The notes beneath the pieces were generated by a model. That model searched no databases, was not told where the DNA came from, and worked only from the letters and a program-made list of their open reading frames with translations. A stretch of DNA of 64,000 bases from Myxococcota bacterium (lineage in GTDB: Bacteria > Myxococcota_A > UBA9160 > SZUA-336). This document shows positions 23,032 through 64,000 of this stretch, in pieces (positions within the stretch are counted from its first letter, which is position 1; the number at the start of each line of letters is the position of its first letter). The stretch lies in the NCBI GenBank assembly GCA_965247115.1, contig CBDFGR010000002.1, forward strand, positions 1,248,001 to 1,312,000. The letters are read 5' to 3'. The position numbers were made by a program, and so were the translations under genes.

Positions 23032-24537
23032 CTACCCTCGCTGCCGAATGAGGAGCGAAGACCCCGCAGTCCTCTCGGCGCACGTCCTGGTGGTCGAGGA
23101 CGAGGCGCTCAGCCGTCGCTCGGTCGAACGGGCCCTGAAGGGGATGGGCTGCGCCACCTCGGCAGTCGGCAACGCGAGCGAGGCGCTCGAGGTCGTTGCT
23201 GGCGGAGGCATCGATGTCGTCCTCGCCGACCTCAAGCTGCCGGGGATGGACGGACTGGAGCTGATCCGCCGCATCGTCGGACCCTCCGCGGCACCCAGAG
23301 GGCGGGGCTTGTGATCCCCTTTTAATTCCATTACTTGCGAACTTCCCGCCCGATTCTCTTGAGCGGCAGCAGGGGAGAGGGGCCGTATAGGGCCGTCCAG
23401 GGCCGCCGAGAGCGCATTCTCGAAGCCCCGGCTCTCGCTAGGCATGAAGTGGCCGTAGGTGTCCAAGAGCAGCTTGGCCGTGCTCCATCCGCCCTGCTCC
23501 TGAATCCACTTGAGCGGCGTACCCCGCGCCATGTGGAGGCTGGCCCAGGTGTGCCGGAGATCATGGGGCGTGGCGCGCCGTCCGGGTCCCAGGGCTTCCC
23601 GGACGATCCGGGGGAACGCTTTCTGCCCGAAGAGCTTCCACGAGAGAAACCCGCCGGTGGCCCCAGTGAACACCAAGTGCTCGGGTCCGACCGGGAAGAC
23701 CGGCGGCCTTTCCGTAAGCAACACCCCCTGCAAGCGCGTGGAAAGAGCCACAATTCGTTCTCGCTTCGTCTTGGTCGGCCCGAGATTCCGGCCGCTGGAG
23801 AGACTCCGGCAGATTCGGGCCCAGCCCGCCTCCACGTCCACATCAACCCAGCGCAGGGCGGCCGCCTCCCCGAGGCGGCACCCCGTCTCCGCCAGGAACA
23901 GCACGAGCGGATAGAACCGCGGATACAGACCGCGCGCCGCGTCCAGCACGCGCTCCCGCCCTTCCCAGCTCAGCACGCGCTCCCGCGCCACGGGCCTGGT
24001 GGATGTGCCGCGGCCCTTGGGCCTGCGGGCCTTCCAGTCGGCGACGGCATTGCTCGCGACCCAATCGCGCTGCTGGGCGAATGAAAGCACGAGCCCCAGC
24101 ACCATCAGCAGCATCTTGATCGACCGAGCGCTCCGGGGCCGCCCGCTGTCGACACAGTGATCATAGAGAGCCTGGACCTTCACCGCGCCGATCGACCGCG
24201 CGTCCTGGTCGCCAAAGTACGGAATCAGATGGACCTCGATGTCGTTGCGGTAGCGCGCGGCCGTGCCCGGCGCGAGATGGCCCTGATGACCGCGCTCGAG
24301 GGGCAGCTCGACCTCCAACCGCAGCCACTCCCGAGCCGCCTCGCGAAACGGCACCGGAGTGGAGCCGCCGGATTTCGCCTCCAGCCCCAACGCGAGCCGG
24401 TGGTTGATCTCCTCCGCCACCTTTCCCGCGCGGCGCTTATCCGCAGCCGTCTTGCCGAAGCGCTTCTTCGTGCGCTTGCCCTGGTGGTGGACTACGACCC
24501 ACCACGCGCTGTTGATCTGCCGAACCTTGGCGGACAT
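23032..24537 (-). CDS. int: Tyrosine recombinase/phage integrase (ORF reads through attL)
   Basis: Arm-binding-like N-terminus; catalytic R (TGCRLGE), K (TKTK), HDLRH, W (GGW) and Y (TYGH) all present. Confidence 0.93.
   Translation of the reverse strand: MSAKVRQINSAWWVVVHHQGKRTKKRFGKTAADKRRAGKVAEEINHRLALGLEAKSGGSTPVPFREAAREWLRLEVELPLERGHQGHLAPGTAARYRNDIEVHLIPYFGDQDARSIGAVKVQALYDHCVDSGRPRSARSIKMLLMVLGLVLSFAQQRDWVASNAVADWKARRPKGRGTSTRPVARERVLSWEGRERVLDAARGLYPRFYPLVLFLAETGCRLGEAAALRWVDVDVEAGWARICRSLSSGRNLGPTKTKRERIVALSTRLQGVLLTERPPVFPVGPEHLVFTGATGGFLSWKLFGQKAFPRIVREALGPGRRATPHDLRHTWASLHMARGTPLKWIQEQGGWSTAKLLLDTYGHFMPSESRGFENALSAALDGPIRPLSPAAAQENRAGSSQVMELKGDHKPRPLGAAEGPTMRRISSSPSIPGSLRSARTTSMPPPATTSSASLALPTAEVAQPIPFRARSTERRLSASSSTTRTCAERTAGSSLLIRQRG
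23048..23280 (+). pseudogene. 5' part (receiver N-terminus) of an NtrC-family sigma54 response regulator interrupted by the integrated element
   Basis: VLVVEDE and DVVLADLKLPGMDGLELIRRIVG; homology stops at the att core; the frame continues at 63076. Confidence 0.9.
23263..23280 (+). repeat. attL core GATCCGCCGCATCGTCGG
   Basis: Identical to 63076-63093. Confidence 0.92.
23376..23406 (+). repeat. Putative integrase arm-type sites (left): tandem GGGCCGT(ATA/CCA) units
   Basis: AGAGGGGCCGTATAGGGCCGT at 23376-23396 is identical to 62965-62985; ~95 bp inside attL. Confidence 0.75.
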
Positions 24538-24731
24538 TACTTCAGCCTTCCCCTTCCACTGCTCTCACGATGGCCTCAAGCACAACACGATTCGTCATCG
24601 AGGATCGAGTAGTAGATCACAATCGGATCGGCTTCCCGGACCGCGTCTGTAGTAGGCCACGCCCAAATCGCCGGGTTTAGAGGCGCGGCAAGAACCGTGG
24701 CAGTTTTCGTGCCATCTTCGCATCGGGCCCC

Positions 24732-24986
24732 TCAATCTCCAAGCGCCTCCAGCATACTCCCCGCGTCCCGCTCGGTGTCCCGAGTCTGCTCTCGAGCCCG
24801 CTCCGCCGCCCAGCGCCGGACCGCGTCCACCGGGATGAGCGTGCGGTGGCCGAGCGAGAAATGGGGGATCTGCGAGAGATGATCCCGGAGATGGCGCTCA
24901 CTGACCCCGAGCGCCTGCGCCGCCTCCCTGAGCCCGAGGGCAACCCGGTTGGCGAGGTCGAGCGTGGGAGCCGATTCGCTCTTCAT
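24732..24986 (-). CDS. Excisionase-like helix-turn-helix protein
   Basis: LGLREAAQALGVSERHLR..L..IPHFSLGHRTLIP..AV..W; immediately upstream of int. Confidence 0.8.
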   Translation of the reverse strand: MKSESAPTLDLANRVALGLREAAQALGVSERHLRDHLSQIPHFSLGHRTLIPVDAVRRWAAERAREQTRDTERDAGSMLEALGD

Positions 24987-25360
24987 GCGGCGTCCTCCTC
25001 CACCCGCACAACGACATGCTGCATCGCGCGCCGCGGCGCCTTGCGCCAGTGGTAGTCGGGATGCCCGCCCACGAAGTTTCGGGGCTTGTCGTCTTCGAGC
25101 ACGCGGGCGGCGACCAGGCCGTCCAAGAGCGGCTTGAAGCTGTGCACGAGGTTGTCGTAGTCGGGTTCTTGCATCGAGACCCGGATGCACGTGACGCCAG
25201 CATGAGAGAGCGGCGCGGAAGGCGCGCGCGTCGCGAAGCGCCAGTGCACCGCCTGCTTCCAGACGCGGTCCTCGCGATGGACCTGCGCCCAGTGCGCCCG
25301 GCGGCGATGAGACTGGAGCGGTGGTAGGCCGTGGAAGATGGCCTCGGCTCGGTAGCTCAT
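24983..25360 (-). CDS. RusA-like Holliday junction resolvase (phage)
   Basis: PDYDNL...KPLLDGL....LEDD acidic motif pattern of the RusA family. Confidence 0.7.
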   Translation of the reverse strand: MSYRAEAIFHGLPPLQSHRRRAHWAQVHREDRVWKQAVHWRFATRAPSAPLSHAGVTCIRVSMQEPDYDNLVHSFKPLLDGLVAARVLEDDKPRNFVGGHPDYHWRKAPRRAMQHVVVRVEEDAA

Positions 25361-25368
25361 TCGGAGAC

Positions 25369-25590
25369 TCACCTGCCCTCGACCGTGACGCGCAGCTTCG
25401 CCTGGATCCGGTCGCACGCTTCTTCGCTGCGCGCGAGGTTCTTGTATGCATACCGCTGCACCGAAAGCAGGTCGGCGTGTTTGCCGTAGTTGGAGATCAG
25501 CCAATTCACCCGGTTCACCCCCGCCTGCGCGAGGCGCACATCGCGCTCCGCTGCCTTGACCTCCTCCTCTTCGCTGGGCCGCGACATCAC
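25369..25590 (-). CDS. Phage hypothetical protein
   Basis: Small ORF co-oriented within the early-gene cluster; no recognisable motif. Confidence 0.45.
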   Translation of the reverse strand: MMSRPSEEEEVKAAERDVRLAQAGVNRVNWLISNYGKHADLLSVQRYAYKNLARSEEACDRIQAKLRVTVEGR

Positions 25591-25629: not shown

Positions 25630-25828
25630 TCATCGGTCCGCCCGTCGCATCCGCGCAGCGCGCGGATCCAACGCGAACAGCCCCACCGCTCCCAGCGCGT
25701 ACTCCCAGCCCTTCACGATCAAGACCTCCTTCATCAGGCTCTCGTTCTCGTCGGTCCGGAGCGACACCACCAGATCCGCCTTGTGATCCCCGAAGCGCCC
25801 CTTGGTGCGGCCTTCCTTGTTCAGCTCT
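25630..25828 (-). pseudogene. 3' remnant of a phage hypothetical gene
   Basis: Open frame abutting the decapitated resolvase at ~25828; no credible start. Confidence 0.35.
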
Positions 25829-26341
25829 GGCATCTCCGGAGCGAGGGCATCTCGTCCGGCCCTGGATCGGCTTCTCTACGGCGCTCGACGAAGGCAGTTC
25901 GACGCCGTGGTAGTCTGGAAGCTCGACCGGCTGGGACGCTCGCTCCGTCATCTGCTCGAACTGGTGGACGAGCTAAAGGCGATCGGGGTCGGGCTCGCCT
26001 CTCTCAGGGACCCCGGATTCGACACGACCACCCCCCAGGGGGAGCTCGTATTTCACGTGCTCGCGGCCGTAGGACAGTTCGAGCGGGAACTCATCAGAGA
26101 GCGCATCCGAGCGGGGCTTGCCCGAGCCAAGCGGTGCCCCAAGAAGGGTAAGAAGCGGCCCGGTCGCCCCAGGAGGGTCCGGCTCGATCTCGATGCCGCC
26201 CAGCGACTGATCGCCCAGGGGAGACCCCTGGCGGCGGTAGCCCGGCAGCTGCGGGTGTCGCGGGGGGCTCTCCGCTACCGGCTTGAAGTCGACGTCCGTC
26301 GCTCCAACCGAGATCTGAATAGATCTACGATCAGCGGCTGA
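25829..26341 (+). pseudogene. Serine resolvase/invertase lacking its N-terminal catalytic segment
   Basis: GISG...RPAL, VVVWKLDRLGRS, FERELIRER..AGL..A and C-terminal HTH present; no Y.RVS motif upstream. Confidence 0.8.
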
Positions 26342-27186: not shown

Positions 27187-27701
27187 CGGGTGGCGTACTC
27201 CTTCCTGCCCGGCCTTCGGCCGAGCTCCAGTTGTTTGGTTTCAACTGGAAGGATACGCCGCCTTCTTCATTCCCTCGATCCACAACTTCTGGTCATAACC
27301 CAGGTCGAACCGAAAGGCAGTCCTCGATGCAGCGCTTGGGGGTGGGGTAACGACGCGGTCGCTGAAGGGCGTTTGCATCGGCAAGTGGGCATGGCTCTAG
27401 ACGCCTCGGAGCCGAACGAGTGATATAGATCTACTCCGCAGCAAGCTTGACCTGGGCGCGGTCTTTATCCCCTTCATTCTCTGCCCTGAGTCGCTTTCGC
27501 CGCCTGAGCCTGTTTATTCTCTTTCACCCCCGAAAGCGACCACGAAAGAGCGAACCTGGTCACGACCATTGCCTATCCCCGGCCTGGATCATTTCCGGTG
27601 GGCTCGGGCCCGACCGACGATTGTAATCCCCTGCTGGGCCCGGCATGCTTGACCCGAGCCCCCCCGAGAAGCGTAGGCGAGTTTCTTAACCTCAGGAGAC
27701 G

Positions 27702-28619
27702 TTGAGCGTGCCGCTGCCACCGAACCGCGTCGACTATAGCCCCATCATCGACCGGCCCCGCATCGAGTGGCCAGACGGCGCCAGAGTTGCGTTCTGGGTC
27801 GCACCCAACATCGAGCACTACGAGTACGTGCCAGAGTTCGACGGGCGCCGAAATCCCTGGCCGCGCACCCCTTACCCGGACGTCCAGCAGTACGGCTACC
27901 GGGATTACGGCAACCGAGTGGGATTTTGGCGCATGCTCGAGGTACTCGATGGGCACCACATCAAGTGCTGTGTCTCGCTGAATCTAGCGGTTCTGGAGCA
28001 CTTCCCGGAAATCGCGGAGGCCATGATCAGCCGGGACTGGGATTACATGAGTCACGGCATCTACAACACCCGATACCTGGAAACCCTGAGCGAAGACCAA
28101 GAGCGCGAGTTCTATCGAGACTGCATCGAGACGCTGAAACGCCACACCGGCAAGATACTGAAGGGCATGCTCGGACCCGCAATATCGGGCAACATAAGAA
28201 CTCCGGACCTCATGGCCGAGGCAGGCCTCACCTACCACACCGATTGGGTGCACGACGACCAGCCCGTGCCCATTCACGTAGCCTCGGGCAAGCTGATATC
28301 CGTTCCGTACTCCTTCGAGCTCAATGACGCGCTGGTGTTCACTCGCCATTTCGAAGGAGAGTACTTCGTCGAGATCTGCAAGGCGCAGTTCGACCAGCTC
28401 TACGCAGAAGGCGAAGTGAGCGGGCGCGTCATGTGCATTGCCCTGCATCCCTTCCTGTTCGGGCAGCCGCACCGGCTCCGCTATCTGGACGAGATTCTGG
28501 GCTATGTCCGATCCCACGACGCGGTATGGCACACCACCGCCGATGAGATCGCCGATTACTACCTTGCTCACTGCTACGGCGAAGCCGTGACGCACGCCCA
28601 ACAGTTCACACAGAGGTAG
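27702..28619 (+). CDS. Polysaccharide deacetylase family protein (PuuE/allantoinase-like)
   Basis: YSPI.DRP...WP.GARVA, DYGNRVG.WR, SHG, WVHDDQP, YSFELND, IALHP..GQP.R. Confidence 0.88.
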   Translation: MSVPLPPNRVDYSPIIDRPRIEWPDGARVAFWVAPNIEHYEYVPEFDGRRNPWPRTPYPDVQQYGYRDYGNRVGFWRMLEVLDGHHIKCCVSLNLAVLEHFPEIAEAMISRDWDYMSHGIYNTRYLETLSEDQEREFYRDCIETLKRHTGKILKGMLGPAISGNIRTPDLMAEAGLTYHTDWVHDDQPVPIHVASGKLISVPYSFELNDALVFTRHFEGEYFVEICKAQFDQLYAEGEVSGRVMCIALHPFLFGQPHRLRYLDEILGYVRSHDAVWHTTADEIADYYLAHCYGEAVTHAQQFTQR

Positions 28620-28624
28620 TCAAC

Positions 28625-29542
28625 ATGCCCGCAGAGCGCCGACCCGGCATGGACCACGAGCACTATCTCTGGTCACCCATTCACACCCGCGGGACGCTTC
28701 GATGGCCAGGGGAGGCCCCACTGGCGTTCGCGATCATCGTCAGCCTAGAGCACATGGAATGGGAGCCCCCCGAAGGCGCGTATCAATCACCAGTGCTGGC
28801 GGGCGGGATCGGTCGGCGCCCTCCACCAGACTACGCTCGACTTACCCTGCGTGAGTACGGGCATCGGGTTGGCATCTTCCGGGTGCTCGACGTGCTGGAG
28901 AAGCACGGCATACCGGCCACCATTGCCATGGACGCTTTGACCGCGGAGCACTACCCCTACCTGGTTCGCCACTGCCAGTCGCGGGGCTGCGAATTCGTGA
29001 GTCATGGCATCTCGGTGAGCCGGATGATTACCAGCCGCATGAGCGAGGATGAGGAGCGCGAGTACATCCGCGCTTCCCTCGATGTCCTGACTCAAGCCAC
29101 CGGCACCGCACCAGCCGGTTGGCTGGGGCCGGAGTACGGGGAGTCGACTCGCACTCCCCAGCTGTTGGCCGATGCCGGGATTCGGTACGTGTGTGACTGG
29201 GTCAACGATGAGCAGCCCTATCCGATGACCACATCCAGCGGCGAGCTCTACGCGCTGCCGCTCGCGTTGGAGATCGACGACGTGCATGCCTTGCACGACC
29301 GTAGAGTGCCGCCATCGCGTTACGCGCGCTTATTGCTCGAGAGCGCGGAAGTGCTGCGTCAAGACGGGGCCCAAAACGGCCGCGTCATGGTGCTCCACCT
29401 GCACCCGTGGCTCAGCGGCCAACCATTTCGAATCGGCGCCCTCGACCGCGCACTCGGCGATCTGATGGAACCAGGCGAAGTGTGGGCCGCCACCGGTAGC
29501 GACATCATCAACTGGTACCGAGACCATCCGCCTAGCGACTGA
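28625..29542 (+). CDS. Polysaccharide deacetylase family protein (PuuE-like), second paralog
   Basis: EYGHRVGIFR, SHG, GWLGP, DWVNDEQPY, LHLHPWLSGQPFR. Confidence 0.88.
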   Translation: MPAERRPGMDHEHYLWSPIHTRGTLRWPGEAPLAFAIIVSLEHMEWEPPEGAYQSPVLAGGIGRRPPPDYARLTLREYGHRVGIFRVLDVLEKHGIPATIAMDALTAEHYPYLVRHCQSRGCEFVSHGISVSRMITSRMSEDEEREYIRASLDVLTQATGTAPAGWLGPEYGESTRTPQLLADAGIRYVCDWVNDEQPYPMTTSSGELYALPLALEIDDVHALHDRRVPPSRYARLLLESAEVLRQDGAQNGRVMVLHLHPWLSGQPFRIGALDRALGDLMEPGEVWAATGSDIINWYRDHPPSD

Positions 29543-29755
29543 GCAACCACCCAAGCTGTGGGCCCCGGACCGCTTCAAACGGACCCAGGCGCTCCGGCGA
29601 GAAGTGGACAATCAGTTCAGCTTCGGCCGGGCGTAGCCATCCTGCGCAAGCGGCATCTCGCACGCCGGGCGGAAGCTGCTTGCGCCGCACTTAAGCCAGG
29701 CCGTAAGATCGTTCTCCACAAATTGGCGAAGAGTGGGGAAAGGGGAGGGCTACCG

Positions 29756-30811
29756 ATGTCCAGCGAGCTACTCGGCCTACAAGGGTCGGTCACGGCAGAT
29801 GAAGAGATCCCGATCCTCGATGTTGGGCCTTTTCTCAGGAGGGAACACGGGGCCCTGCCCCGACTCGCCAAGGAAGTGCTATACGCCCTCGAGAGCATCG
29901 GGTTCTTCTTCATCAGGAACCACGGAGTGTCCCAGGATCTGATCGATCGTGTGTTCGCGGAGAGCACGCGCTTTCACGAGCTTCCGCTCGAGCGGAAGAT
30001 GGCGCTCGTAGTCAACGAGAGCCTCAGCGGGTATCTGCCGTCCGGGAACCAGCAAATCAAGAGCTTCGAGGGCATGCAGGACAACAAGCCGGACCTGGTC
30101 GAGGCTTTCTTCATGGCACGCGAGTCCGGAACGAATTCGGATGGCCCGGAGGGGCTGTTCAGCCCGCGCGGCAACCAGTGGCCGGAAGGCCTGCCCGGCT
30201 TCCGCGAGACGCTGATCGAGTACTCCGATACCCTCGAGGCTCTCTGCGAACGTCTGTTGCCGGTCTACGCGAGCGCCCTCGATCTTTCGACGGACTTCTT
30301 CGACGAGGCCTTTCTCGACGGTAAAGCTCGCTGCGCCCAGCGCCTGTCCCGCTATCCGTCGATCGAGCTCGAAGAAAACCAATACAATACGGCGCCGCAC
30401 TGTGACGGCTCCTTCATCACTCTCCTGGCGCAGTCGAAGGTTCCGGGCCTACAGATACGCAGCCAGTCGGGGAAGTGGTTCAAGGCTCCCGCTCTGGATG
30501 GCTGCTTTCTGGTCAATTCCGGTGAACTGTTGAGAATGTGGAGCAACGACCGCTTCCTCTCGACGACACACCGCGTAATCAACGCCTCGGGCGGGGACCG
30601 CTATGCGATTCCGTTCTTCTACTTTCCGAACCCGGATACGCTGATTGAGTGCATGGAGACCTGTAAGGGTCCCGACAACCCGCCCCGCTATGAGCCGATC
30701 ACCGTGGGTGAGTACTCGGAGTGGTTCGCGAGCAAGAACCTTCGCCACTACGGACCCCGAGGCCACCCCTCTCGAGGAGTATCTGGGCCAAGTCGGTTGC
30801 ACCGGCCTTAG
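29756..30811 (+). CDS. Isopenicillin N synthase family 2OG-Fe(II) oxygenase
   Basis: GFFFIRNHG, NQWP..LPGFR, HxD (PHCDG), distal His (THRV), RYAIPFF; the C-terminus runs into a foreign fragment. Confidence 0.88.
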   Translation: MSSELLGLQGSVTADEEIPILDVGPFLRREHGALPRLAKEVLYALESIGFFFIRNHGVSQDLIDRVFAESTRFHELPLERKMALVVNESLSGYLPSGNQQIKSFEGMQDNKPDLVEAFFMARESGTNSDGPEGLFSPRGNQWPEGLPGFRETLIEYSDTLEALCERLLPVYASALDLSTDFFDEAFLDGKARCAQRLSRYPSIELEENQYNTAPHCDGSFITLLAQSKVPGLQIRSQSGKWFKAPALDGCFLVNSGELLRMWSNDRFLSTTHRVINASGGDRYAIPFFYFPNPDTLIECMETCKGPDNPPRYEPITVGEYSEWFASKNLRHYGPRGHPSRGVSGPSRLHRP

Positions 30812-30950
30812 CTTGATGGCAGAGCGAGGCGATGTTGAGGTCGTCGACAGGATTCAGAAGTTCATGATCGGTTGCAACTGGAAGCTGGCAGTCGACAAGC
30901 TCTTTGACTGGTACCACCCACAGGTCACCCATGCGTCGGCCTTCTTTCCG
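30750..30950 (+). pseudogene. Internal fragment of a ring-hydroxylating dioxygenase alpha subunit
   Basis: LEEYLG...CNWKLAVD.LFDWYHPQVTHAS mononuclear-iron motif; no start, no Rieske domain. Confidence 0.7.
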
Positions 30951-31422
30951 AACGGGTCCGCCCGTGGCTCGATCCCATGACCGGGTACTGCTCCGCGGCG
31001 TAGCCGTGTGCCTTCTCGACTGCGTCGACCCAGTATTGGTCGTGCTTATCCTTCCCGTCGCGCTCGGCCCGCAGGTATTGGATCGCGTGCTCGATCTCCC
31101 AGCCCTCCAGCTTGGGGGCCGCGCCGGACCGCCAGTAGGGTCGCGATGGACATGTCGATGCCGCTGCCGCTGTCATCCTCAAGTCCCTCAGTGTCCCCTT
31201 CTACTCGGGTGGAGAGCCTCAGATCGCGCTTGAGAGCCTCCGCGGCGCGAGGCAGCCACGGCTGCCGCGCCGTTCACGATCCAGGCGGCGAGCTGCGCGA
31301 GCACGAGATTCGTGGCGCGGACGTTCACATGCTTCGTTCCGTCTTCGAAACGCTCGGTTCGGATGATTTGGGACGCTGGCGCGACCCAGAGGAAGGCTGA
31401 CCGACCCGTACCCTCGTCATAC

Positions 31423-31869
31423 GTGAGGTTGCCAGGGATCGCCTTCGCCCTGGTGATGTTGGCCGCGGCGTGCGGAGACAGCGACAACGACGAGGCCGCC
31501 CAGCCCGGGACGACGGCTGTGGCTGCGCCGACAACAGCGGCGCCGGCCACCACCTCAGCTACGCCCGCGACTACCGCAGCCGCCCCGGCAACGACTACGG
31601 CACCAGCCGAGCTCACCATGACCGTTGCCGAGTTCGCCGATGGCGCGGCGATACCAGTGGCGAATCCTTGTGGCGGTGAGGATTTGATCCCGACGATCAA
31701 CTGGACAGGCGTGCCCGATGGGACAGTCAGCCTGGTGCTCATCGTCGACGATCCGGACGCCCCGCAGGACCCCATCTTCGTGGTGGCTTCCACCAAAGGG
31801 CGACATCGTCGGCGCGATCGCCAACTCGATCCTCGCCGAGGCGACCTACACCGGCACTACGACCGGTAG
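31423..31869 (+). pseudogene. YbhB/YbcL (PEBP-like) lipoprotein with an internal deletion
   Basis: Lipobox LAAAC, Thr/Ala/Pro-rich linker, P.I.W.GVP.GT.SL.LIVDDPDAP; the HW/PCPP core is missing and the C-terminal piece is in another frame. Confidence 0.65.
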
Positions 31870-31880
31870 AACACGCAGCG

Positions 31881-34223: not shown

Positions 34224-34261
34224 GGAGCGCTCGCGTGCACAGTGAGGACCAACGGTAGAGG

Positions 34262-34400: not shown

Positions 34401-34402
34401 GC

Positions 34403-35236: not shown

Positions 35237-35254
35237 TGTGTGTCTCTCCACATC

Positions 35255-35400: not shown

Positions 35401-35406
35401 GGCGCC

Positions 35407-48687: not shown

Positions 48688-48690
48688 ACG

Positions 48691-53131: not shown

Positions 53132-53184
53132 GATGTCCGCTTAGTGCGCCTGCTTGCCGGCCAAAATGTTCGCGTTGTACGCAC

Positions 53185-55035: not shown

Positions 55036-55547
55036 GAATGCTGTCGCTAATATTGGTGTCGTTAGGTTTGTTCGGATGCTTGCCGACGTACATTGTTTCA
55101 AATGAATTATCTAACAAATACGATGAGAGTAGATACAATGAGAGCAGAGCGTTCTTTAGCGAGGACTATTCATCACTGAAAGACAATGATGTACTTTTCT
55201 ATATCTACACTGGCTATTACCACAAAAAAGAGAAAAAACTCATTGTATTCTTGGAGTACGATTTTTTGGACGAAGTAGATACCTTCTTGACTAGAGCTGA
55301 CCTGCTTGCAAATGACCAACTGTTTACAAGTGCCAGTACTGGAGACAGCTATTCAGAGACGCCAACAAAGTTTGATGACTATGTCTTGTACCATGGCAGC
55401 GCACGGCTAGCGTTCGATGTTCAGGATATTGATGATCTTCTGGGTAATGACTTGTCAATAGAAATGGGATTTCGTTATAGAGAAATAGACAGTTCCATAC
55501 GTATTGACATCGATATTGATCTGATGTTTCTTATGCCAACCACTTGA
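55026..55547 (+). CDS. Low-GC lipoprotein, putative immunity protein
   Basis: Lipobox LFGC; strongly AT-rich relative to the host. Confidence 0.6.
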   Translation: MLLRMLSLILVSLGLFGCLPTYIVSNELSNKYDESRYNESRAFFSEDYSSLKDNDVLFYIYTGYYHKKEKKLIVFLEYDFLDEVDTFLTRADLLANDQLFTSASTGDSYSETPTKFDDYVLYHGSARLAFDVQDIDDLLGNDLSIEMGFRYREIDSSIRIDIDIDLMFLMPTT

Positions 55548-55683
55548 GGTGTCCTCGTAGCCCGATCGATTCATCCTGTACTGAATCACCCCGAGATTCC
55601 CGGGAGTCTCGAGCCAGCCGCAAGACGGTCCGCGTCATCGCGCTCACGGCGAGAGTGGCCGAGCGCCAAGCGGATCGCTCGCC

Positions 55684-56058
55684 TCATCCCGACAGGTCGA
55701 GCTGGAGCTCGCGCGGATGGGGCAACTCGCCAACCTTCCAGCCCTGAACGTGGAGCCGGGTAGGCTCGTAGTGCTCGCCGACGTAGGTGTGGTACTCAGG
55801 CCGCTCGCGTTCCGTACGCTCCACGGCCATCTGCCGTCCCTCGGGTGTGTCGAAGACGATATCGATCGCCTCCCCCCACCCGGACCCGAACTGGTGCTTG
55901 CTCTTCTCGTGGCCGCCCACAAGCGCGTTCCGCTTCTCGGTGCGGCAGCCACCCGTGACCGATCCGCCATACCAGCAGCAGAGCTGCCAGCACCAGAGCA
56001 CGAACTCGCCCACATCGACCCAATCGATCTGGTGCGGCTCCGAGAGAGGCAGGCTCAT
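55684..56058 (-). CDS. Peptidase M15-like phage protein (putative endolysin)
   Basis: R...RN..VGG...SKH......AID....LH Zn-ligand pattern; ATGA-coupled to the upstream gene. Confidence 0.6.
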   Translation of the reverse strand: MSLPLSEPHQIDWVDVGEFVLWCWQLCCWYGGSVTGGCRTEKRNALVGGHEKSKHQFGSGWGEAIDIVFDTPEGRQMAVERTERERPEYHTYVGEHYEPTRLHVQGWKVGELPHPRELQLDLSG

Positions 56059-57206
56059 GGCGCCAGCGAACGCATCCAGTCCGGCATCGTCCGGTCGTGC
56101 CGGCAGCGCAGGCCCGCTTCTGGGCCGCAGGTATCGTAGGCGCCGAAGTTCCCGCCCAAAAAGACCGCGCGGTGGTAGAGGAACCGGATCCAGCGCCAGC
56201 GCCACGGGAGCGATGTGCGGATGTTCTCCTTGAGCTCCCCATCGGCGTCGTTCTTGCGCTGCCACGTCATCGAGCCGGCCGGGTGACAGCGGGTGCAGTA
56301 CCTCCAGTCGTGGATCCGGCAGGCCCAGCGGAAGTCGAAGCCGAAGAGATCGTCCGGCGAGCTCGAGCAGCCGTCGTCCCGGAAGTGCTCCGGGATCTCT
56401 GCAAGCGTCCGCTTCGCCTCCTTCGGGATCGGCCGCTGCAGTCTGAAGGTCTGGCGGCTCGCGACGGCATCCGCCCCCACACCGGGGCCGTTGAAGACCC
56501 GGTCGGCGTTCCACTGCCCGACCCCGGCCGTCATGGCAATCGAGGTGCCCCGGATCCAGGTCGTGAAGTCACCGTTGTAGACCGCGTTCTCCGCGATATT
56601 GATCCCGAGCGTGTCCCTAGCTACCGCCAGGCTCGCGTCGTCGAGCAGCGTCGCGCCGTAGGCCGACACAACACCCGTGTAGTCGGCCAGACCGCCCGCG
56701 AGGATCGCGGCAGCGACGTGCTGCTTCGTGGTGAGGTCCGTATCGTTGACGGGGTCCACGGCACCCGTCGCCCGGTTCCCGTTGAAGTCGTAGCGGCCAG
56801 AGCCGTCGGTGTCCCCCTCGATCAGGCTGGGGGCGCGCTCCACAAGCTCGCGCGTCCGCTTCTGCTGAAGGGTCACGCGGTCGAGCGCGTCCTCGTGGCT
56901 TGCCGCGGGGAAGGGATCTCCAGAGACGTAGTCCGTGAGTTGCGTCAGATCCGGATCGATGTAGATGACGAGGGTCTGCCCCGTAGGCGGGGCCGTAATC
57001 ATCGTTAGCGTGCCGCCTGCATCGAGTCCCGCTCCCGTAAGCGTATAGTTCGTGGTGATGACCTGGACGACATCCGTCCCGAGAGCGTCATCGTGGAGAA
57101 GAGCCGCAATGTCCCCATTCGCGAGGAACTTGAAGGGAACCGCGAAGACCGTCGTGGAGCCGTTCCCGGCGTAGGTGACTCGGGTCTGTTCTGTGGAGAT
57201 TGTCAT
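56055..57206 (-). CDS. Phage tail-fibre N-terminal domain fused to a phospholipase A2/DUF1353-like domain
   Basis: YAGNGSTTVF..PF.F...TQ.TDY...DPFPA..HE.ALDR.T (T7-type tail-fibre adaptor) plus DGCS..PD......AC.IHD..Y...R..AD. Confidence 0.65.
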   Translation of the reverse strand: MTISTEQTRVTYAGNGSTTVFAVPFKFLANGDIAALLHDDALGTDVVQVITTNYTLTGAGLDAGGTLTMITAPPTGQTLVIYIDPDLTQLTDYVSGDPFPAASHEDALDRVTLQQKRTRELVERAPSLIEGDTDGSGRYDFNGNRATGAVDPVNDTDLTTKQHVAAAILAGGLADYTGVVSAYGATLLDDASLAVARDTLGINIAENAVYNGDFTTWIRGTSIAMTAGVGQWNADRVFNGPGVGADAVASRQTFRLQRPIPKEAKRTLAEIPEHFRDDGCSSSPDDLFGFDFRWACRIHDWRYCTRCHPAGSMTWQRKNDADGELKENIRTSLPWRWRWIRFLYHRAVFLGGNFGAYDTCGPEAGLRCRHDRTMPDWMRSLAP

Positions 57207-57215
57207 GCCTGCTCC

Positions 57216-57445
57216 TTACAGAAGAGACGCGCCGAAGCCCGCCGCCCTTGTGGTCCCAGAGAGCAGCGATGCTGCGGCCCTGTTTCGGCCAATCTTCTTC
57301 GCACTCTTTGCGCGCTGCCTCTCAAGGAACGCTGTGTTCCTCGCCTCGATCCCCGCATTCGTTGCGTCGAGCTCGAGTTCTGCGGCGTTCTCCGCATCGG
57401 GAGAGGACGCCTGGGAGGACGCGGCGCTGGCGATTGCCGGGGTCC
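57216..57445 (-). pseudogene. 3' remnant of a phage internal-virion-like gene
   Basis: Ala/Gly-rich helical C-terminus immediately upstream of the tail-fibre gene; cut by the Rhs fragment. Confidence 0.35.
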
Positions 57446-58458
57446 AGACCCCACGCGGGTTCACCGACCACGAGCATCTGGACGACTTCGCGCTCGTCCA
57501 CATGAACGGCCGGATCTACGACCCGGTGCTGGGCCGGTTCCTGAGCGCGGATCCGTTCATCCAATTCCCCGAGTCGACCCAGGGCTTAAACCGCTATAGC
57601 TACACACACAACAATCCGCTGTCCTTCACCGACCCCTCGGGCTACGTCTTCAGGTTTCCTTTGCCCGTATGGCTTACTTTCGAGACCGTGTCCCTAAACA
57701 TCCGGAGGGAGATCTTCCTCAGCGACCTAGCCCACTCCATTGCCAATCTCCTCGGTCGCGTGTTCCGGCGTGCGGATACCGAAAGCCCCGCCAACGTGTT
57801 CCACCCCGCCGATCCGATCGAGACGCCTCCCCAGGGCGCGGGTGGGGAGGTCGGCTCGGAGCACGGCCGCGACCGCTTCAGGCAGGAAAGTGTCGCCGAC
57901 TCGGTAACTCGCCGATTTATGGCAGCGGAGGGCCGAATCGTCCGCGACGCTGTCGTCGGAGCCATCGCTTCCACCCTCGGAGGCCAAAAGTTCGCTAACG
58001 GCGCAGTCACCGCCGCATTCGGAAGGCTGTTCGCAAACGGTGCAGCCACCGAGGGTCAGGGATTTCCCTTACCGCGCGAAGTCATTGATGCTCTCGATCC
58101 TTACTTCGAGAATTTCGACCTCCACGACATTCTTGTCCGAATGGGCATACCGCGGTATGTCCGCGGTGACCGAATCGTAGCCTATACGGACAAAAACAAT
58201 ATCTTCTTCGCACCTGGCAAATATAAGCCGACTACAGCGTCAGGCATCGCGCTGATCGGGCACGAGGTACGTCACGCACAGCAGTATCAAGAGCTTGGGA
58301 ACTTCCGGTTTAGAGTCCGCTACCTGAGAGAATATCTGGGAGGCCGGCTGAGTGGGTTGAGCCACGAGGAAGCCTACAAGAACATCTCCTTTGAGCAGGC
58401 TGCGTCTGCGTTAGAAGATCGAATAAAGCTCGATCTCGAAGAACAGGGTTATCCCTGA
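57446..58458 (+). pseudogene. Rhs core C-terminal fragment with a DUF4157-like HExxH tip
   Basis: RGFTDHE.LD...L.HMNGR.YDP.LGRFLSADP, NRYSY..NNPL...DPSG, FANGA.TAAF, LIGHEVRHAQQY; 5' Rhs repeats missing. Confidence 0.85.
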
Positions 58459-59030
58459 TGAACACCTTCAAGCAAGCATCGCTCTCTCTACTCGCTGTTG
58501 TGCTGCTATTGGTCCTGGGGCTTAGCGTCTGCGATCCCGTGCCATGGGTTTGGTGGTCGGTCTCCCGCAGCTGCTCCGACGTCGAGAACGAGCTTGTCCG
58601 CAAATCGGGTCCCGAACAACGGCGTTTGATCCTCGACTACCCACTCGAGCAGCAGGTCGATCTCTATCTAAGTTCGATGCATTGCGTACATCCGCCGGAC
58701 CGGAGCCTGTCGGGCGTAGTGGCCAGCAACGGAGCAGACATTGTTCCCATTCTGAGAGATCGCATTATAGAAATTGACAGCGAGCAGTCCAAAAGTGTCC
58801 TAGTCGGTATCTTCTTCGATATGCAGTTTTCTGGCTACTATCCGGTTGCTTCGGACACTGAAACCATGAACTTCTTAGAGCAGCAAGCAGCATTAATGGA
58901 AGATACCGTGTGGAGGGAACTAACCGTTAGAAAGATCATGCTGATTAAGAAGAAAGGCGGGTTGAGGCCAAGCGAAGTCGCACAGGGGGATGTCCCGGAG
59001 GCTGTTGGACTTGAAGACTTGAAAGACTGA
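58458..59030 (+). CDS. Membrane-anchored putative immunity protein (copy B; last 14 codons derive from the IS256 end)
   Basis: Paralog of 53760-54290; the native TGA is replaced by the IS inverted repeat. Confidence 0.65.
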   Translation: MNTFKQASLSLLAVVLLLVLGLSVCDPVPWVWWSVSRSCSDVENELVRKSGPEQRRLILDYPLEQQVDLYLSSMHCVHPPDRSLSGVVASNGADIVPILRDRIIEIDSEQSKSVLVGIFFDMQFSGYYPVASDTETMNFLEQQAALMEDTVWRELTVRKIMLIKKKGGLRPSEVAQGDVPEAVGLEDLKD

Positions 59031-60439
59031 GGGCGGCGGCTCCTTCCGCCTCCGTGTGTTACGGAGGTGGTGCCAACCATAAGGAAGGAGCCACCATGGC
59101 CAAGCATGCCAGTCCGCCCGCTCATCTCCAAGTCGTCGAGTCTCCGAAGACCGTGGCGGTCCAGATCCCGCTGCCCGTTCTGGGGGCGCTTGTGGACGCG
59201 AAGAGTGCCCTGTTCGACCTGTGTGTCGGCGTGGGCCAGCAGGTCCTGGGCGTGCTGATGGAGCACGACCGGGACACGTTCTGCGGCCCGAAGGGGAAGC
59301 AGGACCCCAAGCGGAAGGCGGTCCGCGGAGGCAGCACGCGCTCAGAGGGAACGCTCGGAGGACGCCGAATCCCGGTCCGTCGGCTTCGGGCACGAGGCGC
59401 CGCAGGCGAGCTCGCGCTGCCGAGCTTCGTCTTTGCTGCCGACCGGGACCCGTTGGATCGACACACGCTAGAGGCGATCGCGTGCGGCGTATCGACGCGC
59501 AAGTACGCGCGGAGCCTCGAGCCGCTCGCCGAGGCGGAGGAGCGGAGCGTCTCGAAGAGCGCTGTGTCGCGGCGATTCGTGGCGCTGTCCCAGCAGCAGA
59601 TGACAGCGTGGCTGACCAAGCCGCTTCACGACGTGGACCTCCGGGTCCTGGTGATCGACGGAGTCGTGTTTCGGGACCACACGATCCTGATCGTGCTGGG
59701 TGTGGACAGCGACGGGCGGAAGCACGTCCTGGGCCTGTGCGAGGGCACGACCGAGAACAGCCGGGTAGCGCAGGCGCTGCTCCGCGATCTGCTCGAGCGG
59801 GGTCTCGACTCCGAGCGCGCACGCGTCTTCGGGATCGACGGGTCGAGGGCGCTGCGGGTCGCGATCCGCAAGACCTTCGATCGGCTGGGGGTCGTGCAGC
59901 GCTGCCAGATCCACAAGCGGAGGAACATCCTCTCGCACGTGCCCGAGGCACTCCACGCCAGCGCGTCCAAGGTCTTGGTCGAGGCCTGGGACAGCCCGGA
60001 CGCGGAGCTGGCGGAGCGTCGTCTGCAGAGGCTCGCCGACTCGCTCGAGACCGAGCATCCCGGAGCCGCGGCGTCGATCCGCGAAGGCCTCGAGGAGACG
60101 CTCACACTCCAACGTCTGGGGCTCAAGGGCGCGCTGTACCGGACACTGCGGAGCACGAACACGATCGAGAACCTCAACGGTTCGGTCGCGACCTACACAC
60201 GCAACGTGAAGCGGTGGCGTGGAGGCTCGATGCTCGTCCGCTGGGTCAGTGCGTCCGTGCTCGATGCCACGCGGCGCTTCCGAAGGGTCCGCGGATATCG
60301 AGACCTCGCCGCCCTCGTCGTCGCACTGCAGAAGGTCGAAGACCAACAGCAAGACGCCATCCACCCTCAGGTCGCGTAGTAGAATCCCTCAAACCCGGAG
60401 CCGCCGTTCTCGAAGTTCAACACCGAACGGGACATCGCC
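58986..60439 (+). mobile_element. IS256-family insertion sequence
   Basis: Imperfect ~32-bp terminal IRs GGGGATGTCCCG...GACTTGAAGA and TCTCGAAGTTC...CGGGACATCGCC. Confidence 0.85.
59096..60379 (+). CDS. IS256-family (Mutator-like) DDE transposase
   Basis: GVSTRK, SKSAVSR, LVIDG, IDG, QRCQIHK.RN, RSTNTIEN. Confidence 0.92.
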   Translation: MAKHASPPAHLQVVESPKTVAVQIPLPVLGALVDAKSALFDLCVGVGQQVLGVLMEHDRDTFCGPKGKQDPKRKAVRGGSTRSEGTLGGRRIPVRRLRARGAAGELALPSFVFAADRDPLDRHTLEAIACGVSTRKYARSLEPLAEAEERSVSKSAVSRRFVALSQQQMTAWLTKPLHDVDLRVLVIDGVVFRDHTILIVLGVDSDGRKHVLGLCEGTTENSRVAQALLRDLLERGLDSERARVFGIDGSRALRVAIRKTFDRLGVVQRCQIHKRRNILSHVPEALHASASKVLVEAWDSPDAELAERRLQRLADSLETEHPGAAASIREGLEETLTLQRLGLKGALYRTLRSTNTIENLNGSVATYTRNVKRWRGGSMLVRWVSASVLDATRRFRRVRGYRDLAALVVALQKVEDQQQDAIHPQVA

Positions 60440-60825: not shown

Positions 60826-60890
60826 GAGGGGTCGGGATTCGGAACGACGGTTAGGGCCGCTGCTGATTTTCGGCCGCGTTGGGTGGCCAT
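60826..60890 (-). pseudogene. N-terminal remnant of a phage terminase small subunit
   Basis: GGAGG RBS then MATQRGRKSAAALTVVP, directly downstream of the HNH gene. Confidence 0.5.
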
Positions 60891-61306
60891 AAGGATCTCG
60901 TTTCCTCCGGTGATCTCGTTTTCTTACGCTTTAGCGACCAAAAGGGTGGGCTCCGGTTCCCAGGACAGCCCAAGAATCGTTTCACCCCCCCCCATCCCCT
61001 GTTCGCCGGATGCCTGGGGTCGACGGGCCAGCCGTCCAACCCCACCCGGATGTCGTAGCCGCGCCGCTCCTCGCGCTGCTTGTGGCGGTTGTGGCACGGC
61101 GCGCAAAGCGGCTGCCAGTTGCTCGGGTCCCAGAAGCGCTTCGAGTCGCCTCGATGCGGCACGATGTGATCCACCACGCAGGCCTCGGTCACGCGACGCT
61201 CGGCCTGGCACAGAACGCACAACGGGTGCGCGCGCAGGTACGCGTGCCTCGCGGTGCGCCAGCGATGGCCGTAGCCCCGCTTTGCTGCGGATAGGCGACT
61301 CGCCAC
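60851..61306 (-). CDS. HNH endonuclease (phage packaging-associated)
   Basis: RGYG..W...R..YL..HPLCVLC.....VVDHIVPHRGD...FWD..NWQPLC..CHN..K. Confidence 0.9.
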   Translation of the reverse strand: MASRLSAAKRGYGHRWRTARHAYLRAHPLCVLCQAERRVTEACVVDHIVPHRGDSKRFWDPSNWQPLCAPCHNRHKQREERRGYDIRVGLDGWPVDPRHPANRGWGGVKRFLGCPGNRSPPFWSLKRKKTRSPEETRSLWPPNAAENQQRP

Positions 61307-61310: not shown

Positions 61311-61532
61311 TCACCCTCCGAACAGCGCCGGCCAGAACGAGCGCGCGGTCACGGCCAGCATCCCACCCAAAAGTACGTAGAGCAGCTTGAGGTTGCGCTC
61401 GCTGTGTGCCTCGATCTTCCCGAGCTGCGTTTGGATCTCGCCATAGCGCCGCTCGCACAGGATCTCGTGACGCGAGAGCTTCTCCTGGGCCTCGGTGCGG
61501 ACGCGCTCAACCTCGAGGGTTGCCTCGGTCAT
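61311..61532 (-). CDS. Small phage membrane protein (XhlA/holin-like)
   Basis: HE..C..RY..I coiled coil followed by one TM segment; in the lysis cluster. Confidence 0.55.
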   Translation of the reverse strand: MTEATLEVERVRTEAQEKLSRHEILCERRYGEIQTQLGKIEAHSERNLKLLYVLLGGMLAVTARSFWPALFGG

Positions 61533-62116
61533 TTGCTCACCAGCTGCCGCACGAGGGTTGCGGCGAGACCTTCCTGCCCCGCGGCCACGCGCTTGTCGCG
61601 ACTGCGCGACACCACCCCGACTCCGAGCACGGCCAGCGCGACACTCCACTGCAACGTGAGAGACGCCAGGCCTTCGAACATCGCGCGCAGGAACTCGGTC
61701 GCTGCGCCGCGGTCCTCGGCACCCAAGCTGAACCCCACGACAAGGATCACGCCGACTCCCTGAAGTCCCCAGGTGCAGGCCGAGATGTAGCCCCAGAAAG
61801 GACGCCAGCGGCGCACCACGGGATCCTCGGATGCCAACTCCGCACGCATCGTGCGCTGGATCTCGGCCTGCCGCGTCGACTCGACCTCTAGGTGGAGCGA
61901 GCGCAGCTCGGTGCGGCGCTCCATCTCCAGCGCCCGCAGCCGCTCCGCCGCGGGAAGATCCGAGAGCGCCGTCTTGATTGCCGCCGGATCCTCCTCACAG
62001 CCCAGGGCCGAGGCGATGAGTGTGCCCGCTGCCTTTCCCGCGGGTCCGCCGAGCAATCCGCCCAGAAGCGGCGCGCCGGCCCCGATCACCGCTTGGCTGA
62101 GCTCGCGCCAATCCAT
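61529..62116 (-). CDS. Holin of 3 TMs (GTA-type)
   Basis: APLLGGLLGGPAG, E..S.D...RRWRP..GY, LGV....RS.DK. Confidence 0.75.
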   Translation of the reverse strand: MDWRELSQAVIGAGAPLLGGLLGGPAGKAAGTLIASALGCEEDPAAIKTALSDLPAAERLRALEMERRTELRSLHLEVESTRQAEIQRTMRAELASEDPVVRRWRPFWGYISACTWGLQGVGVILVVGFSLGAEDRGAATEFLRAMFEGLASLTLQWSVALAVLGVGVVSRSRDKRVAAGQEGLAATLVRQLVSK

Positions 62117-62502
62117 CAGTAGCTCCACAGCGCCCGGCCGCCGGGGCGGGGGACGCGGTCGAGGTGCAGGTAGCGTGCGGACCGCTCGCCGTTCTGCTGG
62201 ATCCCCACACCGATCCAGTCGAGAGCCATCGCAAGCGCGAGCAAATCAAAGGCCGCTGCACCCGCCACCCGTACATCCACCGCACCAAGCGTGTGTGCAT
62301 GCAACGCGCCATTGCCTTTGGCGGCTTCGGTCGGATGCTCCGAGCAGCGATAGCCCGACGAGACGCGCATCGGACGGTTGTATGCAACGCGCAGCAGGCC
62401 GAGCGCATCGAGGAACGCCGGGTACTCCTCCCCCTCCGGCAACGCGCCGCAGTGTCGGCAGGCCAGCTCGTCTGCACGGAAGTGCTCGGGCAGATGCACC
62501 AT
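62116..62502 (-). CDS. Peptidase M15A endolysin
   Basis: HF...E.AC..CG, R..YNRPM.VSSGYRC..H, AH....AVD, LHLD. Confidence 0.82.
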   Translation of the reverse strand: MVHLPEHFRADELACRHCGALPEGEEYPAFLDALGLLRVAYNRPMRVSSGYRCSEHPTEAAKGNGALHAHTLGAVDVRVAGAAAFDLLALAMALDWIGVGIQQNGERSARYLHLDRVPRPGGRALWSY

Positions 62503-62584
62503 GCCATCGACCCTATGGGTCCGTGCCGAAACTTCAACGGGCGAGGTCGACCGCTTTTGACCGGTTTGGTCCGGTTTCGACCAC

Positions 62585-62797
62585 TTATTTTTCCGCGAGA
62601 GAACGCCCCAGCTCGGAAACCGGGATCCAGTAGCGCTTCTGACCGCAAGGGCCGGTGGTGATCCGACAACGGATCTGCCTCGTCTGGCACCAGTAGCGAA
62701 CCGTCCTCACGCTGCGCCCGATCCGGGCGGCGAACGTCTGCGGCGTGAGCTCACGCACCAGGCTGCGCGTCTGTGCCCTCGCCGGACTGCTGCACAT
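62585..62797 (-). CDS. Small helix-turn-helix DNA-binding protein
   Basis: LTPQTFAARIGRSVRTVRYWC...I...YWIP; start uncertain. Confidence 0.55.
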   Translation of the reverse strand: MCSSPARAQTRSLVRELTPQTFAARIGRSVRTVRYWCQTRQIRCRITTGPCGQKRYWIPVSELGRSLAEK

Positions 62798-62964
62798 TCC
62801 CTCCTCAAGCGCCCCAGAGACTCCAGGACACGAGATCTTCTACGAACAGGACCCACACATCGTGTTCCCGCGCACAAGCCCGCAGAAACGATCTCTGGCA
62901 CACAAGCAAGCTACACACAATCGTGACACAGCGTAGCTCAATCGCGCTGAGTCAGCGACGGAAA

Positions 62965-62985
62965 AGAGGGGCCGTATAGGGCCGT
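62965..62985 (+). repeat. Putative integrase arm-type sites (right)
   Basis: AGAGGGGCCGTATAGGGCCGT identical to 23376-23396; ~90 bp inside attR. Confidence 0.75.
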
Positions 62986-63075
62986 TTGGCCGTCGTCGAG
63001 ATCGCGCATGATCGACGATGATCATCGCTGATACGCATGCTGCGCTAACTACACGTCTTTGCGTGGGTTGGAATC

Positions 63076-63093
63076 GATCCGCCGCATCGTCGG
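63076..63093 (+). repeat. attR core GATCCGCCGCATCGTCGG
   Basis: Identical to 23263-23280. Confidence 0.92.
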
Positions 63094-64000
63094 CCTCGAC
63101 CTCGATCTTCCCTGCGTGGCGATGACGTGCCTGGCCGGCCCGAAACGGTCGATCGAGGCGCTTCGCGCCGGTGCGTTCTGGTTCGTCGAGAAGCCCGTCG
63201 AAGAGAGTCTCCCGGCGCTGGAGCGCCTGATTGCGGAGGCGCTCCGGACAGGCCGACCGGGCACGGTCGCTCCCGCCACGCCGCGCGCCGGGGGGGAGAC
63301 CATCCGGGGAATCGAGAGCATCGTCGGCAAGAGCGACGCGCTGCGTCGCTCGCTCGAGATGGTGCGCCGCGTGGCCGACTCGGAGGCGACGGTCCTCATC
63401 CTCGGCGAGAGCGGCACCGGAAAGGAGCTCGTCGCACGCGCGATTCACTTCCACAGCCGGCGGGCGAGCGCGAACTTCGTCGCCGTGAACTGCGGCGCGA
63501 TTCCGGAGACGCTGCTCGAGTCGGAGCTTTTCGGCCACGTGCGCGGCGCCTTCACCAGCGCGGATCGCCAGCGCGATGGCCGCTTCGCCGTGGCGAACGA
63601 GGGGACGATCTTCCTCGACGAGATCGGCCAGATGAGCCCCAACCTGCAGGTAAAGCTCCTGCGCATCCTGCAGGACGGGACCTACGAGCAGGTCGGGTCT
63701 TCCATCACGGAGACCTGTGATGTGCGAACCATTGCCGCCACCAATCAGAACCTGCAAGAGGCAATGAGCACGGGGCGCTTCCGCGACGACCTCTTCTACC
63801 GGCTGAACGTCGTGCCGGTCGAGCTCCCGGCACTGCGCGAACGACACGATGACATCCCGCTGCTCGTCGAGCACTTCCTGCAGCGGACGGGCGGCCATTT
63901 GCAGGGCTTCACGAACGAGGCGATGCAGAAGCTATGCGCGTACGCCTGGCCTGGGAACGTGCGCGAGCTCGAGAGCCTGGTCGAGCGCATGTCCATCCTC
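63077..64000 (+). CDS. 3' part of the interrupted NtrC-family sigma54 activator (rest of receiver + AAA+ domain; runs off the window)
   Basis: IRRIVGLDLDLPCVAMT...GAFWFVEKP, Walker A GESGTGKE, ESELFGH..GAFTSA, FLDEIG, FRDDLFYRLNV, WPGNVREL; no stop before the window end. Confidence 0.92.
   Translation, partial: MRRIVGLDLDLPCVAMTCLAGPKRSIEALRAGAFWFVEKPVEESLPALERLIAEALRTGRPGTVAPATPRAGGETIRGIESIVGKSDALRRSLEMVRRVADSEATVLILGESGTGKELVARAIHFHSRRASANFVAVNCGAIPETLLESELFGHVRGAFTSADRQRDGRFAVANEGTIFLDEIGQMSPNLQVKLLRILQDGTYEQVGSSITETCDVRTIAATNQNLQEAMSTGRFRDDLFYRLNVVPVELPALRERHDDIPLLVEHFLQRTGGHLQGFTNEAMQKLCAYAWPGNVRELESLVERMSIL

Follow-up and report, generated by a model that had tools for sequence, protein, structure and literature searches.

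A stretch of 64,000 nucleotides from the genome of a Myxococcota bacterium (assembly GCA_965247115.1, contig CBDFGR010000002.1, positions 1,248,001 to 1,312,000 of the forward strand), called the window in the following, contains a gene for an NtrC-like activator of sigma54-dependent transcription that is split in frame by a phage-like element of about 40 kb. This arrangement raises the question whether the element is a genetic switch, whose excision rebuilds the activator and thereby gates a sigma54 regulon as an earlier note on this DNA had inferred, or whether its arrival has broken the gene. The analysis favors the latter and points to a recent, disruptive and strain-specific insertion of a defective prophage laden with cargo, which may still excise (probability about 0.7).

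The split gene and its junctions comprise the following features.

23048 to 23314, plus strand: 5' fragment of the NtrC-like gene, with 77 native receiver codons, 10 element-encoded codons and a stop at 23312-23314
23263 to 23280, plus strand: attL core, an 18-bp exact direct repeat, right after which empty-site contigs from other samples (X4 and X6, described below) depart from the window
63076 to 63093, plus strand: attR core, second copy of the 18-bp exact repeat
63074 to 64000 and continuing to 64309, plus strand: 3' part of the NtrC-like gene, encoding the remainder of the receiver, the AAA+ sigma54-interaction domain (with GAFTSA), the lid and a Fis-type helix-turn-helix (HTH)

The core, GATCCGCCGCATCGTCGG, has no third copy in the window and is present exactly twice in the whole 5.17-Mb genome; its two-copy occurrence was reached in none of 100 shuffles of the window. 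The cores enclose an insert of 39,795 bp (23281-63075). The insertion point is codon 77 of about 484, and the insert offers no substitute for the sequence that it separates. The codon register of the core is identical on both sides of the insert and the split is therefore in frame. The translation of the 5' fragment (MRSEDP...DGLELIRRIV) runs through the core into element-encoded residues, matches the Pfam profile Response_reg (8.7e-15, profile positions 1-65 of 111) and aligns with the N-termini of the orthologues from two genomes of the same genus, G002 and G001 (the source genome is G000). The frame from 63074 reads SIRRIVGLDLDLPCVAMT...GESGTGKE...GAFTSA and, when followed in the genome sequence, is open for 411 codons, past the window edge, to a natural stop at window-equivalent positions 64307-64309. 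This part matches the profiles Sigma54_activat (8.6e-69), AAA_lid_14 and HTH_8 (2e-12). The domain set of the NtrC family (Response_reg, Sigma54_activat with GAFTSA, HTH_8) is complete only across both halves together, and no single open reading frame (ORF) that is now present has all of it.

Clear orthologues of the C-terminal part were found among 40 relatives only in G002 (87% identity) and G001 (78% identity). Their open frames comprise 502 and 483 amino acids, respectively, and the gene lengths across the split point are 479 and 481 amino acids. Both proteins pass straight over the split point (...ELIRRI(V/S)(S/A)LD...), and the G002 protein harbors Response_reg, Sigma54_activat, AAA_lid_14 and HTH_8. 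In the DNA comparison, the G002 locus aligns colinearly to window positions 21781-23278 (86.9%) and 63076-64335 (88.4%), and the two alignments overlap by 16 bases, all of which lie within the 18-bp core. This overlap indicates that 23281-63075 was inserted cleanly and that the core was duplicated, which is the mark of site-specific integration. The phage arms of the element were found in neither of the two congeners.

The site was also analyzed in sequencing runs, by means of assembled contigs (Logan), from which rare variants are dropped. Among the 22 runs listed, X1 to X3, which derive from one sample, hold a fraction of 0.95-1.00 of the sampled words of the attL stretch and X16, from the same sample, holds 17%, while the share in runs from ten other studies does not exceed 28%. 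Contigs of X1, X4, X6 and X7 were aligned to window positions 22000-24600. An 11.6-kb contig of X1, the probable source, spans attL with 0 differences, which indicates that attL does not stem from an error of this assembly. In X4 and X6, which belong to two other studies, contigs track the left flank to position 23280 and then continue with CCTCGACCTCGATCTTCCCTGCGTGGCGAT, exactly the 30 bases located 3' of the attR core in the window. Depth over 23305-24600 was 0 in X6 and X7 and, apart from a value of 0.81 in one bin, essentially 0 in X4. The flanks of X4, X6 and X7 show mismatches to the window at about 2% of positions (12/701, 16/701 and 31/1252). The empty-site contigs and the near-zero depth over the element indicate that closely related, conspecific-like strains elsewhere have an empty site. 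The element was thus seen only in the source sample and is missing from all three runs of other studies that were examined (X4, X6 and X7). No empty-site (attB) or circular-junction (attP) contig was present among the X1 contigs listed, a source in which rare variants are lost.

These data bear out the structural part of the earlier note, which had described a core shared in the same codon register (confirmed by the exact repeat and by both translations), two stop-free halves (the 3' frame runs to its natural stop beyond the window) and one continuous NtrC-like gene after recombination (as seen in the uninterrupted genes of G002 and G001 and in the empty sites of X4 and X6). Inactivating lesions in the 3' part beyond the window, which the note had named as an observation that would speak against a switch, are absent, the frame being open to 64307-64309.

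According to the favored interpretation, a tyrosine integrase would have recombined the element into the core within the receiver coding region of an orphan NtrC-like activator, and the insertion likely knocks out this one activator paralogue in this strain. The event would be recent relative to the split from G002. An N-terminal fragment of 88 amino acids and a C-terminal part without a start would probably yield no working activator. The element could probably still excise via Int and Xis and restore the gene precisely, but such excision would be occasional and not a programmed switch.

The age of the insertion was approached through changes on the G000 branch, assigned by parsimony with G001 as outgroup (73 further codons were ambiguous). 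The N-terminal half shows 5 synonymous and 0 non-synonymous changes and the C-terminal half 15 and 5, giving a total of 20 and 5 compared to 24 and 9 on the G002 branch. These counts indicate that the interrupted gene was under constraint for most of its branch and rule out long neutral decay. The comparison of the halves in the manner of dN/dS, proposed earlier as a check, therefore shows no signal of decay, and the neutral decay that had been named as refuting a switch is not seen. Constraint on the halves fits a recent insertion and a maintained switch equally well.

The gene context is that of an orphan regulator. The split gene has a Nudix hydrolase gene upstream and, on the opposite strand, an HpcH-type aldolase gene downstream, and no kinase gene is adjacent. 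The genome contains rpoN and 16 matches to this AAA+ protein, a number that makes the loss of one paralogue plausible.

The recombination module of the element comprises the following four features.

23032 to 24537, minus strand: tyrosine integrase ORF of 501 codons (Pfam Phage_integrase PF00589, 5.4e-16, and Phage_int_M; phrog_1, 7.4e-61)
23376 to 23396, plus strand: candidate arm-type repeat AGAGGGGCCGTATAGGGCCGT, 96 bp inside attL, found by k-mer comparison of the ends as an exact 21-bp match to 62965-62985
24735 to 24986, minus strand: Xis/AlpA-like HTH gene of 84 amino acids, a predicted recombination directionality factor (phrog_66 excisionase, 7.5e-7)
62965 to 62985, plus strand: second copy of the candidate arm-type repeat, with its end 90 bp away from attR

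Along its whole length, the integrase aligns colinearly with seven relatives, and it retains every residue that is invariant in the alignment. The invariant positions of the eight sequences include R221, K256, H325, R328, W351 and Y361, which we take to fill the catalytic roles of a tyrosine recombinase (Arg, Lys, His-x-x-Arg, His/Trp and Tyr). The Xis-like protein matches Pfam HTH_17 at 2.2e-5, under the curated cut-off, and 17 of 61 related integrase loci have a homologue directly upstream of int. The repeat AGAGGGGCCGTATAGGGCCGT contains GGGCCGT sub-repeats and is, judged by its sequence, a plausible arm-type site. Profiles, alignment and k-mer match thus agree with the earlier description of integrase, xis and arm-type repeats as intact.

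No stop codon interrupts the integrase ORF ahead of the core. Starting at 24537, the ORF crosses attL and ends at 23032, and its final 77 codons lie antisense to the receiver fragment. At the excised junction, the integrase frame would stop 8 codons past the core; in the integrated state a foreign tail of 77 amino acids replaces its own last 8 residues. In relatives, the integrase ORF likewise extends into the target gene. Conservation of the protein stops near residue 391, ahead of the core, and the tail swap may therefore matter or not.

The remainder of the element was annotated by a Pfam scan of 59 insert ORFs, together with the two gene halves, and by a PHROGs scan of 32 ORFs.

24986 to 25360, minus strand: RusA-like resolvase remnant (phrog_34, 1.6e-6)
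25802 to 26338, plus strand: serine invertase/resolvase fragment (Pfam Resolvase, 3.6e-32, profile positions 41-141 of 145; phrog_125)
27418 to 44515, unstranded: metabolic cargo block of 17 kb (Pfam)
45248 to 60376, unstranded: region rich in insertion sequences and repeats (Pfam, other copies in G000, GC profile), including a Y2_Tnp fragment (Pfam)
46597 to 47697: IS110-family transposase (Pfam)
49409 to 51994: VWA/TPR protein in a 2.9-kb repeat (Pfam)
53265 to 53525: IS3-type HTH_Tnp_1 gene (Pfam)
56058 to 57206, minus strand: protein with a tail-fibre N-terminal domain, a phage remnant (Pfam Phage_T7_tail, 2.2e-6; phrog_1640 tail protein, 1.6e-31)
59054 to 60376: Mutator-family transposase (Pfam)
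60854 to 61306, minus strand: HNH endonuclease (Pfam HNH; PHROGs, 1.3e-38)
61532 to 62128, minus strand: holin-like protein (Pfam GTA_holin_3TM; PHROGs holin)
62119 to 62502, minus strand: M15 peptidase endolysin (Pfam Peptidase_M15_3; PHROGs endolysin, 1.4e-14)
62588 to 62797, minus strand: second small HTH_17-like gene, adjoining attR (Pfam HTH_17, weak at 1.2e-3; no PHROG match)

No capsid, portal, large terminase, tail tube or replication gene was recognized in these scans. The earlier view that head, tail and replication genes are deleted or fragmentary is thereby upheld, as only lysis, HNH and tail-fibre remnants were recognized; the serine invertase fragment lacks the first 40 profile positions, its N-terminal part. 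The combination of phage remnants, cargo and transposases indicates a defective prophage that has turned into a landing pad for other mobile DNA.

The cargo block encodes two polysaccharide deacetylases, a 2OG-Fe(II) oxygenase, two amidohydrolases, two luciferase-like monooxygenases, a 3-hydroxyisobutyrate-dehydrogenase-like protein, an alpha/beta hydrolase, a TonB-dependent receptor and a Zn-dependent alcohol dehydrogenase. It is colinear with G002:C29:166794-189897 at 92-99% DNA identity, compared to 87-91% for the host flanks, and the G002 copy likewise lies among insertion sequences. The excess in identity and these surroundings suggest a recent exchange, and the block at 27418-44515 looks, from its sequence, like a recently exchanged mobile catabolic island. 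Two additional insertions, of about 2 kb and 3.9 kb, are present in the G002 block.

Several repeats of the region were found elsewhere in G000. The 2.9-kb unit (window 49189-52084) encodes a protein of 862 amino acids with TPR and von Willebrand A domains and has three copies of 97-98% identity, the others at C3:673138-676033 and C3:2353840-2356582; no transposase was recognized in it. A stretch of about 770 bp (window 55674-56444), which overlaps the 3' part of the tail-fibre ORF, has at least five further copies of 92-96% identity (C3:1184919, C2:2200290, C1:32567, C3:770434 and C2:245960). The ORF at 57175-58455, between the tail-fibre remnant and the Mutator-family transposase, harbors an eCIS-core (DUF4157-type) domain and also matches a PHROG of unknown function with 2,333 positions. 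GC content is 0.53-0.54 in window 52000-56000 compared to about 0.65 elsewhere, and the ORFs of this low-GC part (e.g. 53760-54287 and 55026-55544) have no Pfam or PHROG match. Just downstream of the split gene, a DUF772/DDE_Tnp_1 insertion sequence is located at C2:1313576-1314493 (window-equivalent 65576-66493). About 30 places in G000 match its relative from G002 at 83% identity, a number that points to a large expansion of this insertion sequence.

The alternative that survives best, although it is unlikely, is a permanent insertion, in which an altered integrase or lost regulation has trapped the element and the activator is a young pseudogene in two pieces. The change of the Int C-terminus on integration would suit this explanation, as would the several transposases and repeats in the element and the presence of 16 matches to the AAA+ protein. 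A like arrangement in phage Mx8 alters integrase behavior (PMC6070905). However, the end of the conserved Int part near residue 391, well before the core, leaves room for a tail without effect, and neither int nor xis, the cores or either gene half shows an inactivating lesion.

The targets of related integrases were examined as well. The 61 related loci comprise 22 from species genomes and 39 from metagenomes, with relatives from metagenome-assembled genomes recorded as Myxococcota or Deltaproteobacteria and from a few others. In 27 of them the integrase lies at the 3' end of a DDAH-like (amidinotransferase-fold) gene, which itself follows an aldehyde dehydrogenase gene and continues with a replacement tail; nine of the 61 adjoin a tRNA gene. 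An NtrC-like gene stands beside the integrase in none of the 61 loci, so that the search for homologues targeting ntrC-like genes in relatives, suggested earlier, gave a negative answer. By its sequence, the end of the DDAH-like gene appears as a conserved protein-gene attB for this integrase clade of Myxococcota and Deltaproteobacteria. The clade, to judge from these loci, normally spares its target, and the window element is the exception that breaks one.

At the DDAH-like sites, the int ORFs extend in antisense orientation across the conserved end of the coding sequence, ...GGGSVKCMIGDLGP (e.g. L022:1823-2114 and L025:2713-3805). The DDAH-like gene of G000 itself lies at C3:1373435-1374325, with no G000 integrase match near it. 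The NtrC core was also considered as a look-alike of the DDAH-type site; a shared GCATnnTCGG was noticed by eye and, being short and post hoc, was not relied on. Targeting of a tRNA gene by the window element was rejected, as the window contains none. A partial second integrase of the same clade occurs at G000:C3:2389705-2390238 (51% identity, residues 205-383 only); it adjoins IS110-like and invertase-like fragments and is probably the wreck of a sister element. Viral contigs yielded no relative of the integrase and no exact copy of a 28-base stretch of attR. The best integrase matches among 50,697 phage records were below 30% identity, and Mx8 was not among the best 12 listed.

A switch in the manner of active lysogeny, in which regulated Int/Xis excision rebuilds the activator and turns on a sigma54 regulon, possibly followed by re-integration, is judged quite improbable against this background. 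Excision at the in-frame core would restore the architecture of the G002 and G001 orthologues, rpoN is present, and the loss of capsid, portal and terminase genes means that excision would not lead to lysis. However, domesticated switches are expected to be conserved at their site, and this element is absent from both congeners and from the three runs of other studies. The missing attB and attP contigs of X1 count weakly, as contigs are the only source, and the heavy load of insertion sequences and repeats resembles a decaying site more than a maintained device. The foreign tail of 77 amino acids on the integrated Int also speaks against a switch. Confinement to one sample, absence in relatives, the other targets of the clade and the build-up of insertion sequences together leave the inferred gating of a sigma54 regulon without support.

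A number of points are nevertheless compatible with regulated excision. Int, the Xis-like gene conserved in the clade, the arm repeats and both cores are intact, and retention of int and xis after loss of morphogenesis genes is the pattern of domesticated elements such as skin. Stop-free halves with branch counts of 20 and 5 are what a maintained switch would predict. Contigs cannot reveal rare excised forms. The target counts are limited in three ways: sequence of 300 bp or more downstream of int is available for only 46 of the 61 loci, a part of the metagenome loci are duplicates of those from genomes and the counts are therefore not independent, and the relatives are at most 59-60% identical to the integrase and may not predict its target here.

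Far less probable is a neofunctionalized allele, in which expression starting inside the element would turn the 3' part into an activator with a truncated receiver and with activity independent of phosphorylation. Some activators (NtrC1, DctD) become constitutively active when their receiver is deleted, and the frame is open from 63032 with an in-frame TTG at 63059, GTG at 63116 and ATG at 63122. However, the TTG is the sole in-frame start before the attR core and is preceded by no obvious, purine-rich ribosome-binding site, and no sigma70-like promoter was found within 62500-63300; the lone TTG and the missing promoter make expression of a truncated activator unlikely. Furthermore, the neighboring gene of the element is directed away from attR, and about one third of the receiver fold would be left as an unfolded stub.

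Junctions created by a chimeric assembly are hardly conceivable: the genome is apparently a metagenome-type assembly in three contigs, but the independent 11.6-kb contig crosses attL unchanged and the duplicated core with precise colinearity to G002 is what site-specific integration leaves behind.

The favored reading, a recent disruptive integration, places the element among well-known events, intragenic site-specific insertions that are potentially reversible, of which it is a new example. The phage switches Listeria phi10403S/comK, B. subtilis skin/sigK, SPbeta/spsM and Sa3int/hlb are described as a prophage or remnant inside a coding sequence, with its own recombinase and a directionality factor (predicted in the present case), and precise excision would rebuild the frame here as there. 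Like skin, the element lacks morphogenesis genes and keeps its recombination module. The cyanobacterial nifD, fdxN and hupL elements are likewise gene-intervening, and their excision rebuilds the frame. In the known switches, excision was observed and is tied to a condition or cell type, whereas none was seen here in contigs; domesticated switches are moreover conserved at their site across strains or species, whereas no relative and no other sample examined contains this element. The target also differs, being a sigma54 enhancer-binding protein in the present case. Literature searches found no described prophage in an NtrC-family or sigma54 activator gene; PMC7466150 mentions a sigma54 activator in another context than prophage insertion.

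The relation of int and attachment site resembles that of Mx8. In this phage, attP lies inside int, integration makes a new 3' end and changes integrase behavior, and the phage integrates at attB1 or attB2 in the host chromosome (PMC6070905). The window element shares the attachment core in the 3' end of the integrase ORF and the new C-terminus on integration (IntP to IntX in Mx8), a likeness that is architectural only, with no close sequence relationship seen; unlike Mx8 with its attB1 and attB2 (PMC6070905), it sits inside a regulator gene. Islands that insert at the 3' ends of tRNA or protein genes restore their target, as the same integrase clade does at DDAH-like (27/61) and tRNA (9/61) genes, whereas the window element enters at codon 77 without a replacement and leaves the target broken.

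For the integrase clade, which normally spares its target, be it the 3' end of a DDAH-like gene or a tRNA gene, the finding adds one member that disrupts a regulator. It also shows an int/attP overlap like that of Mx8 in uncultured lineages, and a prophage remnant as landing pad for a recently exchanged metabolic block of 17 kb. These results are useful for annotation and for the prediction of att sites and will not surprise specialists. In myxobacteria, sigma54 enhancer-binding proteins drive development. An excision-competent on/off switch for the orphan NtrC-like protein, coupled to an Mx8-style integrase with a state-dependent C-terminus, is improbable; if it were true, and excision were regulated, it would be the first phage-derived switch that gates a sigma54 regulon and would extend phage-derived gene switches to this class of activators.

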